IMG/VR virus record: IMGVR_UViG_3300033067_000616
Span: 150-64,149 of that record
DNA: 64,000 nt
Origin: a virus
Lineage: Duplodnaviria > Caudoviricetes
Direction: 5' to 3' (one strand)
Shown here: positions 1,670 through 22,024 of the stretch, piece after piece
Layout: every line of letters begins with the position of its first letter
Position numbering within the stretch: the stretch's first letter is position 1
Notes under the pieces: generated by a model
Told to the model about the DNA's origin: nothing
The model's database searches: none
What the model saw: only the letters and a program-made list of their open reading frames with translations
Translations under genes and position numbers: made by a program

Positions 1670-1889
1670 TCATCCTTTCATTATCAAGGATGATGTCATG
1701 ACTTTGCACCTTGTCGTATAGGACTGTATCTCCATGTGCTATGCCTATAATATTATCGCCTACTTTGTAGACGATAGCCTTATGGTAACGCATGTCGTTT
1801 GAATCAGCACCGGTTAATAATAAACCGGTGCTAGTCTGCTTTTGCTCTCTTACTCGTTGAACGAGCAAGTATTTACTTAATACTCTCAT
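1632..1889 (-). CDS. groES: Co-chaperonin GroES (Cpn10)
   Basis: LLVQRV...TSTGLLL mobile loop, VYKVG, GDTVLY, I+.EKDV; directly downstream of GroEL. Confidence 0.85.
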   Translation of the reverse strand: MRVLSKYLLVQRVREQKQTSTGLLLTGADSNDMRYHKAIVYKVGDNIIGIAHGDTVLYDKVQSHDIILDNERMTIIQEKDVVCVL

Positions 1890-3441
1890 CTGCTCTGATA
1901 TTTGTAATAATTGCGTTTGTGCTCATTATTGTCGTCGCTACCGACACAGCGTTCAATAAGGCGTTCTTAGTGACCTTAGCCGGGTCAATGATACCAAGCT
2001 TAATCATGTCACCATACTGCTCTCCCTTGACGTCATAACCCTCATTAGGGAACGGCAGGATGCCGTCCATAATAAACTGAGCGTCCTTGCCAGCGTTGTC
2101 AAGTATCTGACGCATTGGAGACGTTAACGCTTTGTGCATGATCTGAGCCGATGCAGAGCTGAGGCCGGTTAAGTGGTTCTTGGCATACTCAAACAAAGCA
2201 ACACCGCCGCCAGGGAGAATACCCTCCTCTAGTGCTGCCTCAACTGCACACACAGCGTCGTCAATGCGGTCACGCTTCTCCTTCTGCTCAATGTCACTCA
2301 ACGCACCTACATAGATCACAGCAACACCACCAGACAAGTTGGCTACTCGCTCCTTGCGGTTGTCCATCTCCTCCTTAGTTATGCCATCGAATATGGTGTC
2401 GTTGATGTCGGCAATGCGATTATCAATAGCAGTTTGTGAACTGCTATAGGGCATAAAAATAGTACTATCCTTACCAACGATAACCTTAGCGCAACGACCA
2501 AGGTGAGCAACATCAATGAGCGACAAGTCGTCACCAGTGTCCTCACTGAAGTATGTACCGTCCAATGCGATTGCCAGATCTTCAAGCAAGTCCTTCTGAC
2601 GATACCCAAAGCTTGGAGGTAAAATGTTACACGCTTTTATTTTGCCCTGAGCAACGTTAATGTTCAATGTGTTTAATGCTGCTGGTGTCATCTCACCAAT
2701 GATGAGCAGAGGCTTATTGTTGGCTACTACATGTTGTAAGATACGCTCAATATTAAGCAAGTTATTGATTTCTTGGTCAGTGATTAAGACATATGGGTTC
2801 TCTAGAACACACTCTTGACGCTTGTAGTCAGTGATAAAGTGACGGCTAGTCCAACCTCTGTCAGCCTTAATACCCTTAATCACCTCGACATACGTGTTGT
2901 GGTCCTTACTGTTCTCAACAGACACCATCTTTACCTCACTAAACGCGTCAGCGATCATACCACCGATAGTGGTGTCATTGTTGGCACTGATTGAAGCCAC
3001 GTCTTTAAGCTTCTTGCCTGAAAGTTTCTTGGCTCGTTTCGACAGGTGGTTCACGACATCTGTCGTGATACTATTAATCTCACGGATTACCTCAGTTACG
3101 TTGTCAGCTTCAGACAGTATGTCTGTAGCTGCATCAACAATAGCCTCGGCAATGACAATTGACGTAGTGGTTCCATCACCAGCAACAGTGGCAGTCTTCT
3201 CAGCAGCCTGTCGCATCATCATAACAGCCAAATTTTCAACCGGATCATACAGATTGATCGACTTAGCGACCGTCACGCCGTCCTTTGTGACTGTAATACC
3301 ACCGACGTGATGTTCTGATTCAATCAACACAGTTCGGCCTCGCGCACCTAATGTGCTTTTTACAGCTCCAGCGATCGTTTTGATGCCTTTAATGAGCTTT
3401 TTGCGACCTTCGTCGCCTAAATGTACATGTTTTACTACCAT
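1873..3441 (-). CDS. groEL: Chaperonin GroEL (Cpn60)
   Basis: STLGARGR, VTKDGVTVAK, AGDGTTT, RVANLSGGVAV, EEGILPGGG, GIIDPAKVT motifs; no GGM tail. Confidence 0.97.
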   Translation of the reverse strand: MVVKHVHLGDEGRKKLIKGIKTIAGAVKSTLGARGRTVLIESEHHVGGITVTKDGVTVAKSINLYDPVENLAVMMMRQAAEKTATVAGDGTTTSIVIAEAIVDAATDILSEADNVTEVIREINSITTDVVNHLSKRAKKLSGKKLKDVASISANNDTTIGGMIADAFSEVKMVSVENSKDHNTYVEVIKGIKADRGWTSRHFITDYKRQECVLENPYVLITDQEINNLLNIERILQHVVANNKPLLIIGEMTPAALNTLNINVAQGKIKACNILPPSFGYRQKDLLEDLAIALDGTYFSEDTGDDLSLIDVAHLGRCAKVIVGKDSTIFMPYSSSQTAIDNRIADINDTIFDGITKEEMDNRKERVANLSGGVAVIYVGALSDIEQKEKRDRIDDAVCAVEAALEEGILPGGGVALFEYAKNHLTGLSSASAQIMHKALTSPMRQILDNAGKDAQFIMDGILPFPNEGYDVKGEQYGDMIKLGIIDPAKVTKNALLNAVSVATTIMSTNAIITNIRADESIK

Positions 3442-3466: not shown

Positions 3467-3685
3467 CTACTTTTTTGGCAATCTAGAGAATGTTATGTTG
3501 CTTTTTACTCTTATATCTTTATGAGTAAACTGCCACATCTCCCCGCTTTCACTTAAAATGATAGTATAAATAGTATCAGTCTCATGACCATAGTCAGTAA
3601 CTAGCCAAATTGCACCGTCACCTCTTGGAGTGGTGACATCAATCCTGTTCGATGGTTCGAATATAGTAGGACTCATCCCTATCAA
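3467..3685 (-). CDS. Hypothetical protein
   Basis: 72-aa ORF, in operon between the transferase and GroEL. Confidence 0.55.
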   Translation of the reverse strand: MIGMSPTIFEPSNRIDVTTPRGDGAIWLVTDYGHETDTIYTIILSESGEMWQFTHKDIRVKSNITFSRLPKK

Positions 3686-4298
3686 TTAATTTATTATACA
3701 ATTCAGTGTCTCTAGACCATTCATGCCCAGTCCAAAACTCAAATCCATGGTAGTTTGCCTTATATCTGCAGCAATTTTCATAACCAGCCATTAAGTACAC
3801 ATAATTACAACCAAGCTCCTTGGCATATAAGCACTCAAACATCTGAGCAACTGTACCTAATGATAGTTTTGTATCACTATAGTCTGTTATAAACTGATAT
3901 GCCACAAACTCGCCTCCAAATATACGGTAAATACTAACCCCAATCAAGCGATCTGTATAATATTCAATGACATTGCAGTCACTATAGTCATAAATATCTC
4001 TTTTAAAGCCGTTATACTCGCAGTATTTTTCATACATCTCAGAGTAATCACCAAAAGTAGAATGCTTAACTGTTACCTTATTAGACAGTCTTTTGGTTGT
4101 TTTAGACGGCCTGTAGTCTTTTAGATCTATACGAGTGCTCCTCTCATTATACCACCTTCCTTTCCATGGTACCCATCCATTAGATAATGCAGATGACTCA
4201 GACTCATTAGGCTCTAATATACCGTATGCGCAATTAACAATCAGCTCGTAGTCACTGACCTTACCGAATCCATTTAAGTGATCGAAGTATATCTTCAT
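3639..4298 (-). CDS. ATE1/Bpt-like aminoacyl-tRNA--protein transferase
   Basis: GW...WY..RSTRI.L..Y.PSKT.KR (ATE N-part) and YY.D.LIGV...SLGT...E...AKELG.NYVYL..GY....YK (ATE C GNAT part). Confidence 0.7.
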   Translation of the reverse strand: MKIYFDHLNGFGKVSDYELIVNCAYGILEPNESESSALSNGWVPWKGRWYNERSTRIDLKDYRPSKTTKRLSNKVTVKHSTFGDYSEMYEKYCEYNGFKRDIYDYSDCNVIEYYTDRLIGVSIYRIFGGEFVAYQFITDYSDTKLSLGTVAQMFECLYAKELGCNYVYLMAGYENCCRYKANYHGFEFWTGHEWSRDTELYNKLIDRDESYYIRTIEQD

Positions 4299-6221: not shown

Positions 6222-6424
6222 CAACACTACAAACATTCAAAGCTATCATCAACGGGACGTTGGTGGTAGTTGACCAACTCAAAGGCAACAACGGACGTCA
6301 AGACATCCGCTACAAATTGCATCGCACACAATACACCAACAAAGGTGGTTATGTGGTTACTTATGATGAGGCCATCGTAAGTGCGGATGACTTTTGGAGA
6401 TTGCATCCACAGAAGGTTAACTGA
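6218..6424 (+). CDS. Early hypothetical protein
   Basis: 68-aa ORF; its stop TGA lies inside the hammerhead CUGAUGA core. Confidence 0.6.
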   Translation: MTTLQTFKAIINGTLVVVDQLKGNNGRQDIRYKLHRTQYTNKGGYVVTYDEAIVSADDFWRLHPQKVN

Positions 6425-6471
6425 TGAGCACTTCAATAGTCGAAACATGGGCTCCGGCCCATGTCTTAACC
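6415..6471 (+). ncRNA. Type I hammerhead ribozyme
   Basis: Stem I ggttaa/ttaacc; core CUGAUGA 6421-6427; stem II G-C plus act/agt; GAAA 6442-6445; stem III catggg/cccatg; GUC cleavage triplet 6463-6465. Confidence 0.88.
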
Positions 6472-20979: not shown

Positions 20980-21149
20980 AGTTCACAATCATCTGGATCA
21001 GCCAAAATTTGGCCATTCCTTTTTGGGTGGTTGGGCATGTGCACTTGAGCTTGAATGTGTATAGGGACATACATGAGATACTCATGTCTGTCGGCATGAA
21101 CATCATTGTAGCGATAGGATTTTATTTAGATTACAAGAGGGGAGTTTAG
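20961..21149 (+). CDS. Small membrane protein
   Basis: WISQNL.IPFW.VGH.HLS...EI..S.GMN.IV..GF. Confidence 0.55.
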   Translation: MARGFIKFTIIWISQNLAIPFWVVGHVHLSLNVYRDIHEILMSVGMNIIVAIGFYLDYKRGV

Positions 21150-21329
21150 TTTAATATTAACCTTTAAAACAAAAGGCAGATTTTAGATTAAGTCAGGAGC
21201 CTCCCCTCTTTTTAATATTGAACCTCGTAGTCTCTCAACGATGCGCACTATCGAGAGTACGATGGACAGGGCAGCTGACTGATTCCATCTAGCTGTGTAA
21301 GGCAGGAGGCCCCTTCGCTTACACACGCC

Positions 21330-21356
21330 ACCAAGCTAGAGTCGGGTGGTTTTTGT
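21330..21356 (+). terminator. Terminator-like hairpin
   Basis: ccacc...ggtgg followed by ttttt. Confidence 0.45.
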
Positions 21357-21391
21357 TCACGTATCGTGAACGGTTGGAATAAATGAACAAT

Positions 21392-21557
21392 GGTCAGGTG
21401 GCGGAATGGTGTTGATGTGACACGGCAGTGTACGAAGCCCAAGGTAGACGCTAATAGACGAAAAATAGGTTTCATGCTGTGAGGTCGACTTAATCAGCAT
21501 GCCTAGAAGTAGAAAAGAGGGATAAGCTCCATGCCCGTTCGAATCGGGCCCTGACCG
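21392..21557 (+). ncRNA. tRNA-like RNA with an expanded D-loop and a replaced anticodon/variable arm
   Basis: Acceptor ggtcagg/cctgacc; TGGCGGAATGGT..AGACGC D-arm of type II tRNAs; T-arm gcccg-TTCGAAT-cgggc; 35-nt D-loop insert; about 80 nt in place of the anticodon arm. Confidence 0.7.
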
Positions 21558-21724
21558 CACTAGCGGTGCTGTTATTGGTTGAGCAAACCGATTGAACCGT
21601 ACCCCACTCGACTGCTCACTTAGGTGAACACCGAGGACCCCCCGGTGATACGTTGCCGGGGTAATTTACTTAAACCACGCCAAAACCACTTAATATTAAG
21701 CACATTTGGCGAAATATAGATAAC

Positions 21725-22024
21725 ATGAGAAAGTTAGGACAACGTAAGATACCAATCAGCATTACTAAGTACACGTTAGCTAGATACAACGATTGGAAGA
21801 CGATGCGCGGAGCGAACATCGGTTGGGTGGAGTGGAGCGATGACGGAAAATTTAAATATCTTCATCAGAAGCCAGCCGTTGGTCTATCGCTCATCTTAGA
21901 CCCACACAGTTGGGTATACACATGGCTTACTACTCCTGTAACCGAGATAGTAGAGCAGGGTGATAGCCACATAGTATTCAAGACAGAGAACTCAAACTAC
22001 GAATTGACATGGATAGACAAATAG
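21725..22024 (+). CDS. Conserved hypothetical protein
   Basis: GW.EW..DG.FK..H..P.VG.SLILDP....YTWLTT.VTEI. Confidence 0.55.
   Translation: MRKLGQRKIPISITKYTLARYNDWKTMRGANIGWVEWSDDGKFKYLHQKPAVGLSLILDPHSWVYTWLTTPVTEIVEQGDSHIVFKTENSNYELTWIDK

Follow-up and report, generated by a model that had tools for sequence, protein, structure and literature searches.

Stable tRNA-like RNAs are already known from phages. The tRNA gene cluster of T4 encodes two of them, species 1 RNA (rnaC, 139 nt) and species 2 RNA (rnaD, 119 nt). Species 1 RNA combines a perfect T arm (CCGGG-UUCGAAU-CCCGG) and acceptor-like closing ends with a large middle that is not tRNA. For neither RNA do we know of a modular family with swappable cargo. 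A related architecture has been built in the laboratory: the engineered tRNA scaffold of Ponchon and Dardel keeps the acceptor, D and T arms and carries an RNA of interest at the anticodon arm, and cellular tRNA enzymes process and stabilise the RNA (PMC3753655). Lake phages also carry GOLLD RNA (RF02032), a large RNA that frequently accompanies tRNA genes. In a 2023 survey of structured RNAs of viruses, tRNA-like candidates are mentioned, but not the architecture discussed here (PMC10690425), and in the literature searched we found no description of a family with a tRNA-shaped chassis and variable cargo.

Here we describe an element of this kind at 21392-21557 (+) of the window, by which we mean the whole 64-kb stretch of DNA analysed, a complete record of an uncultured virus. 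The primase, helicase and other genes of this virus have their closest counterparts in phages of Flavobacterium, Cellulophaga, Nonlabens, Polaribacter and Bacteroides, and its host is probably a member of Bacteroidota. With rnaC the element shares its outline, the two being compared by architecture alone. They differ in that rnaC closes its acceptor-like ends with 5/7 pairs and shows no Leu-type D arm, while the element has no neighbouring tRNA genes; rnaD differs further in having no T arm. On these architectural grounds rnaC appears to be the closest natural precedent. The engineered scaffold follows the same design, but it is a laboratory construct that keeps the anticodon stem as a connector (PMC3753655), whereas the element is natural, has lost the anticodon stem, has its variable arm replaced and carries a second insert in the D loop. 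Compared with class II tRNA-Leu (RF00005), and with that insert set aside, its D arm GGCGGAAUGGUAGACGC equals that of canonical tRNA-Leu(UAA) genes on two contigs picked up by the same D-arm pattern (L138, L160), and the T loop, U8, A14, A15-U48 and G18G19 are kept; it differs by having neither an anticodon arm nor a regular variable arm, and by G73 in place of A73. Habitat and gene neighbourhood are reminiscent of GOLLD RNA, to which the element is unrelated in size and architecture.

Architecture of the element

The element is 166 nt long and is composed of the following parts.

21392-21398 (+): acceptor stem, 5' strand GGTCAGG, pairing 7/7 with 21550-21556
21399-21410 (+): U8, G9, D-stem 5' strand GCG(G) and D-loop start AAUGGU, equal to the Leu-type D arm GGCGGAAUGGUAGACGC of the family up to the insert
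21411-21445 (+): 35-nt insert in the alpha region of the D loop, a second cargo slot; predicted to fold as a hairpin, missing in sister copies
21446-21451 (+): AGA-CGC, the D-loop end with the D-stem 3' strand; no change at the three D-stem pairs in a 13-sequence alignment
21452-21532 (+): main cargo, in place of the anticodon and variable arms; motifs kept in 13 distinct sequences with two chassis variants
21466-21505 (+): cargo hairpin of UAGG, UUU bulge, CAUGCUG, 15-nt loop, CAGCAUG and CCUA in the MFE fold; C21473-G21501 is U-A in four sister sequences
21484-21489 (+): GUCGAC palindrome in the apical loop of the cargo hairpin, extending to a 10-bp self-duplex AGGUCGACUU
21533-21549 (+): T arm GCCCG-UUCGAAU-CGGGC by direct reading; two T-stem pairs compensated across the subfamily
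21550-21557 (+): acceptor 3' strand CCUGACC and discriminator G73 (G21557); CCA is not encoded

An earlier note on this DNA had described a 7-bp acceptor, a Leu/Ser-type D arm, a perfect T arm, a 35-nt D-loop insert flanked by GGT, and about 80 nt of non-tRNA sequence with a long hairpin in place of the anticodon and variable region. Its anatomy is correct in all details checked. Direct reading places U8 and G9 at 21399-21400, pairs the D stem GCG (21401-21403) with CGC (21449-21451), and finds the 7-bp acceptor together with a 5-bp T stem and its UUCRANY loop. The tertiary-core nucleotides U8, A14, A15-U48, G18G19 and U54-A58 are all kept. The D stem and the GG are present, but between AAUGGU at its start and AAGGUAGA at its end the D loop holds the 35-nt hairpin, with GGT repeats on both sides, and the GG at 21443-21444, inside the insert segment, is able to act as G18G19. 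The main cargo consists of a single-stranded motif UAGACGAAAA, the hairpin at 21466-21505, a purine-rich stretch GAAGUAGAAAAG, a short variable-arm-like hairpin GAGGGAUAAGCUC at 21517-21529, and U48 at 21532.

ARAGORN found no anticodon stem of 5 bp with a 7-nt loop and an anticodon, and brute-force deletions uncovered one no more readily than in shuffled controls. Run on the whole 64-kb window, ARAGORN calls neither a tRNA nor a tmRNA, and its silence on the element, a check that the earlier note had proposed, is consistent with the missing anticodon arm. At gathering score, Rfam has zero matches in the entire 64 kb, including no hammerhead at 6415-6471 and no GOLLD or ROOL RNA, and around the element it has zero matches at E<=10. 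Even at E<=10 both the element and a sister copy without the insert escape the tRNA model RF00005, whose gathering threshold is 29 bits. A tmRNA was also considered and rejected, as the ARAGORN tmRNA search and Rfam are negative and 166 nt is too short.

Sister copies and selection on structure

A metagenome scan with the cargo motif retrieved sister copies from other samples. In five of them (L229, L230, L236, L237, L241), which read GGCGGAATGGTAGACGC, the insert is absent and the sequence is otherwise almost identical to the window element; the insert is absent from L231 as well. Because the five copies read GGCGGAAUGGUAGACGC at the D arm, the insert measures exactly 35 nt between GGU repeats. 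They further carry A73 against G73 in the window, G2-U71 against G2-C71, and U-A for C21473-G21501, the first pair of the upper stem CAUGCUG/CAGCAUG, a replacement that bears out the long hairpin. A second sister group from the same phage lineage has the acceptor CACGGAG/CUCCGUG, in which 6/7 pairs are changed, all of them with compensation. Both groups share the cargo motif UAGACGAAAA, the hairpin base AUAGG/CCUAU and GAAGUAGA-A-GAGGGAUAAGCUCCAU.

Aligning 13 sequences of this subfamily shows that the structure is under selection: 99.1% of cells pair, as opposed to 28-44% with slid partners, and nine base pairs are changed on both sides. This compensation excludes erosion and, together with the missing anticodon arm, supports the idea of a tRNA-shaped RNA that is maintained and unable to decode. 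Among the same 13 sequences the acceptor sequence varies more than the single-stranded motifs of the cargo, an argument against regarding the cargo as filler. Strain variants are likewise neutral to structure: C21536T keeps a G-U pair, G21557A restores A73, and A21543T yields the T loop UUCGAUU, a loop found elsewhere in the family.

The RNA and population data consist of assembled contigs, and parts left uncovered in the RNA runs carry no meaning. From a freshwater metatranscriptome comes a 412-nt contig that spans 21136-21302, differing there by 13 substitutions and several indels; 21303-21389 is replaced in it by 45 unrelated letters, after which it matches 21390-21549 with 0 differences, insert and cargo included, and stops 7 nt short of the acceptor 3' end. 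It joins the element to its upstream flank with no 5' cleavage visible, and DNA contamination is possible. The insert form is also carried by a riverine DNA contig over 21217-21585 with 5 differences. The metatranscriptome contig gives a hint that the RNA exists in its unspliced form and that conservation is far stronger in the element than in its flank.

A family of tRNA-Leu chassis RNAs

Many genes that combine this D arm with a perfect T arm, a closed acceptor and a non-tRNA middle are present in loci surrounding the helicase gene of related viruses. A scan with the 21-nt D-arm pattern matched at least 120 viral contigs, ranging in size from 4 to 197 kb. Among the matches listed, only 2 of 104 distinct sequences are ordinary tRNA-Leu(UAA), and nearly all others combine a constant chassis with unrelated middles at a total length of 69-211 nt. 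The chassis consensus reads AGUCAGG-UG-GCGGAAUGGUAGACGC-UA ... ACAGG-UUCGAAU-CCUGU-CCUGACU-A. From this consensus the window copy departs by GGUCAGG, GCCCG/CGGGC and G73, which are compensated variants found in L161 and in the sisters too. With the insert set aside, its Leu-type D arm is GGCGGAAUGGUAGACGC, non-tRNA cargo fills the stretch from there to U48, and its acceptor closes 7/7 directly 3' of the perfect T arm. The element is a divergent member of this family, which is very large, is found in uncultured phages, mostly those of freshwater Bacteroidota, and derives from tRNA-Leu.

The acceptor can also be recognised when no stem is presupposed. With the site set by the first T-arm-like motif 3' of the D arm, 7/7 pairing was found in 82/94 family seeds and in 0/564 offset controls, a result that greatly exceeds chance. 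The family uses 21 different, fully compensated acceptor stems, and its discriminators comprise 71 A, 8 G, 2 U and 1 C.

In other phages real tRNA genes are usually found no more than 1 kb from a chassis RNA, and on several contigs there are two or three copies whose middles differ. One 114-kb viral contig has two chassis RNAs along with a GOLLD RNA (L133:1293-1710, 262 bits) in its tRNA cluster. The location inside tRNA gene clusters makes co-processing with tRNAs plausible. The window phage has no tRNA genes and its element sits in an RNA island, so this argument is not directly applicable here.

Some family members are probably annotated as weak tRNAs, since the Rfam tRNA model scores typical chassis RNAs elsewhere at 30-41 bits. 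A search of 185,579 species genomes with the 25-nt 3' half of the chassis matched 17 contigs of metagenome-assembled genomes, mostly from Chitinophagia, Sediminibacterium, Flavobacterium and Saprospiraceae. All 17 matches are chassis RNAs, none of them a host tRNA, and the one on a 214-kb contig adjoins terminase genes. An attP-like copy of a host tRNA 3' end was rejected as a candidate: the 25-nt 3' half has no match among ordinary host tRNAs, and the top neighbour clusters include no integrase. GenBank phages have no nucleotide match to the island or to a typical chassis RNA, and the family is therefore so far confined to uncultured viruses. When the neighbouring genes of 112 chassis-bearing loci were screened, no partner gene emerged; the commonest cluster, a terminase, is present in only 14 loci. 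As no protein gene is conserved beside the chassis RNAs, host enzymes are their likely handlers.

Several further tRNA-like genes were noticed alongside the family. Ser-type chassis RNAs with the D arm GGCUGAGUGGUCUAAGGC are present at L028:1165-1223 (59 nt) and L030:486-621 (136 nt), the former having nothing at the position of the anticodon and variable arm. Three type I tRNA-like genes (L006:8832-8913, L016:2762-2845, L049:1543-1613) have a good anticodon stem with an oversized loop of 20 nt (AAUUUAAUAUGGUG...) or 8 nt (GGUUUAAU), and ARAGORN labels them tRNA-??? with an anticodon of 2 nt. Within the same RNA island, related phages carry 124-nt tRNA-like genes (L007:9704-9827, L011:8679-8802, L032:8146-8269) that have the acceptor AGUGAGG/CCUCACU and a perfect T arm, and no Leu-type D arm.

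The RNA island and the exchange of cargo

The element lies in an ORF-free, strongly structured (z = -4.1) island of 600 nt (21130-21725) between a 62-aa gene and a 99-aa gene. Beside the element, the island contains the following features.

21136-21214 (+): long hairpin with a T run, from fold and sequence; not listed by the terminator scan, its loop being too long
21264-21352 (+): conserved structured RNA block 5' of the element, near-invariant in L004, L006, L010, L016 and L018
about 21558-21600 (+): nested hairpin directly 3' of the element, with compensatory changes in L231
21640-21661 (+): terminator-like hairpin, a predicted site

The first hairpin probably ends the upstream operon, as judged from its predicted fold. 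The block at 21264-21352 comprises three hairpins, one of them with a covarying pair, and a CCACC...GGUGG end that in some genomes is followed by a T run. It has no Rfam match; it could be a small RNA in its own right, or a leader that governs whether transcription reads through to the tRNA-like gene. In the nested hairpin, L231 changes GCGGU/ACCGC to GCAGU/ACUGC and its inner stem likewise, while L237 and L229 carry a tandem duplicate. A long-range helix between the upstream block and the sequence just 3' of the element was rejected because L231 breaks two of its pairs without compensation.

All carriers of the window's cargo type belong to one phage group and have it in the same slot, which is bounded by the 62-aa gene and the DUF7695 gene. 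The element is accessory and dispensable: in L003 and L025 this slot contains no RNA island, and in L004 the upstream and downstream blocks are joined directly. Between L004 and the filled sites of L237 and L230 the difference runs precisely from +1 to C74 of the RNA, a clean insertion or deletion of the mature-RNA segment alone; neither a target duplication nor microhomology was seen. At the same site L006 and L010 carry different chassis RNAs.

Cargo is swapped between phages. Two contigs (L134 and L193) are near-identical over 86 nt upstream, that is flank plus 5' chassis half, and over about 110 nt downstream, comprising the 3' chassis half and flank, and their cargos of 41 and 67 nt are unrelated. 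Elsewhere, a single upstream flank leads into four different elements in four contigs. Both observations indicate that cargo is exchanged as a cassette, and the chassis halves may serve as homology arms in this exchange.

A second slot in the D loop and a palindromic cargo loop

Hairpins in the D loop are not confined to the window copy. Between GGCGGAA and (G)UGGUAGACGC they occur in L011, L029, L124, L148, L151 and L220, of which L011 is a CACGGAG RNA plus a D-loop insert. A short type of D-loop hairpin is found in L124, L104, L021 and L029, with stems that differ by compensatory changes. In all members with a D-loop insert, GG stays beside the 3' side of the loop. This retention suggests that the insert leaves the elbow contact with the T loop intact, so that the hairpin would project from the variable alpha region. 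A mobile mini-element was considered for the insert and discarded: a second copy of its 35 nt was found neither in the window nor in the loci searched.

The apical loop of the cargo hairpin carries the palindrome GUCGAC, whose extension to a 10-bp self-duplex is computed at -14.1 kcal/mol. The CACGGAG sister group has 7-nt loops, UCAGCUG or UCGGCCG, which are both palindromic. Palindromic loops in the window copy and these sisters suggest that cargo hairpins of this type may dimerise through loop-loop contact. Kissing loops throughout the family were rejected, as a 6-nt palindrome occurs in 15/137 predicted loops, about the chance rate; at best, then, the palindrome characterises this type of cargo. 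Two further ideas were also rejected. Avoidance of a restriction site is not seen (GTCGAC occurs 7 times versus 8.9 expected), and as an antisense RNA the cargo has a best match to the phage genome of 13 nt (E 0.056) and the insert one of 11 nt, both at chance level.

A proposed role as a cargo-bearing RNA

In tRNAs, RNase P, RNase Z, the CCA-adding enzyme and elbow-binding factors recognise the acceptor stacked on the T arm and the elbow formed by the D and T loops. In the reading that we favour, and to which we attach about even confidence, the element is an accessory gene from which the phage makes a small, tRNA-shaped RNA that does not decode, with a class II tRNA-Leu chassis displaying cargo hairpins. 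The chassis is kept, and the part between positions 26 and 48 is replaced by folded cargo specific to the lineage. The RNA island between the 62-aa and DUF7695 genes would be transcribed, RNase P would cleave at 21391/21392, and RNase Z or exonucleases would trim after G21557, followed by CCA addition. The product would be an RNA of about 169 nt, presumably stable, that presents two hairpins, the D-loop insert and the one in the cargo slot. The cargo would be the effector; it probably binds a partner of host or phage and may pair with itself through the palindromic loop. At the DNA level, the two halves of the chassis would act as homology arms for the exchange of cargo between phages.

In its architecture, the tRNA part is consistent with a handle for processing by RNase P and RNase Z, as the earlier note had suggested among other roles. 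The 35-nt hairpin in the D loop could disturb recognition of the elbow by RNase P, and we count this against the favoured explanation.

A wider proposal would describe the whole family as a modular RNA cassette system, and we put it forward tentatively, as less likely than not. The chassis would hijack RNase P, RNase Z and the CCA enzyme for maturing and protecting whatever RNA is inserted, and offer homology arms, and the cargos in the two slots would be fast-evolving effectors of conflict. We hold with equal reserve that such a system would span phages of freshwater Bacteroidota and others, the conflict being between phage and host or between phages. Some cargos, including that of the window, may act in it as kissing-loop dimers.

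Alternative readings

Is the tRNA shape itself the active part? As a decoy or sponge, it would titrate a host factor that reads acceptor and elbow, for example a defence nuclease that targets tRNAs, or an enzyme for processing or modification. Conservation of the chassis far beyond that of the cargo, and the several copies that a phage often carries, agree with this, as does the position of these RNAs in variable, accessory regions, where counter-defence genes often lie. A decoy made of chassis alone would, however, have no need of the cargo conservation and compensation seen within subfamilies; the 25-nt 3' half matches no ordinary host tRNA gene in the 185,579 species genomes; and the anticodon-like stem-loop is missing. 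Absence of this stem-loop makes mimicry of an anticodon-nuclease target impossible, and with it falls the more specific decoy that the earlier note had put forward. On balance we consider a decoy rather unlikely.

An aminoacyl carrier is unlikely. A host synthetase would charge the RNA, and the amino acid would be donated outside the ribosome, for example to an ATE/Bpt-like transferase, a donor role also raised in the earlier note. LeuRS would charge the A73 copies, and perhaps another enzyme the G73 copy of the window. The phage indeed encodes an ATE_C-family protein (PF04377) at 3639-4298 (-), with 29.4 bits against a cut-off of 25; this arginyl/leucyl-tRNA-protein transferase-like gene adjoins a GroEL-type chaperonin gene at 1873-3441 (-). 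The family is moreover chargeable in principle, as bacterial LeuRS needs A73 and the tertiary core and can dispense with the anticodon arm, deletion of which cost 2.5-fold in affinity (PMC2377443); most members have A73 and the core nucleotides are kept. The window copy, however, has G73, and an A73G change lowered leucylation by bacterial LeuRS 143-fold (PMC2377443). The expected co-occurrence of RNA and transferase gene is not seen either: with the window genome as positive control, ATE_C was found in 0/8 related genomes, six of them complete and several carrying chassis RNAs, and about 140 chassis-bearing loci contain no ATE homologue. Conserved, covarying cargo motifs would also be needless for a mere carrier.

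If the element were only processing punctuation, RNase P and RNase Z would cut at its ends to free the flanking structured RNAs, and the element itself would be a by-product. Its position fits: the conserved structured blocks on either side of it adjoin one another in L004, and filled and empty sites differ by exactly +1 to C74. Most family members, however, lie in tRNA clusters without such blocks, L004 manages without the element, and punctuation needs neither 80 nt of conserved cargo nor a D-loop hairpin. We regard this reading as quite unlikely.

An intron-bearing pre-tRNA that is spliced into a functional tRNA would account for the intact chassis, and the GGT repeats around the D-loop insert make its excision conceivable. 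Around the element there is, however, no group I intron or other Rfam match, and no bulge-helix-bulge was seen in the predicted fold. In a deletion test the D-loop insert was removed and all 871 single deletions in the middle that leave 70-95 nt were scored with ARAGORN, which called 44 of them, with mixed isotypes; five shuffled middles gave 187-736 calls. The real middle thus resembles a tRNA less than random sequence does. In sister copies that lack the insert an anticodon arm is still missing and Rfam makes no call, and the one RNA-library contig carries the element unspliced. The intron-containing precursor that the earlier note had listed as a possibility is in our view very improbable.

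A decaying tRNA-Leu pseudogene, or a DNA-level site without RNA function, would explain the rejection by tRNA finders and the relatives that live without the element, and it is just as improbable, given stems that are all perfect and compensated rather than eroding, a very large family, and 100% identity between samples while the flank diverges.

Implications

The window copy adds three points to what the family can tell: the D loop is a second insertion slot, its insertion event is datable between sister genomes, and such an RNA is possible in a phage with no tRNA genes at all. Genes of this family escape standard annotation or are probably labelled as weak tRNAs. If the favoured reading is true, a hidden class of small RNAs that exploit the tRNA maturation machinery is present in hundreds of phages, as a natural counterpart of the laboratory tRNA scaffold. 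Hypervariable cargo, exchanged between near-identical genomes and located in accessory regions, is the pattern expected in an arms race, and the family could therefore be a large, unexplored set of RNA effectors.
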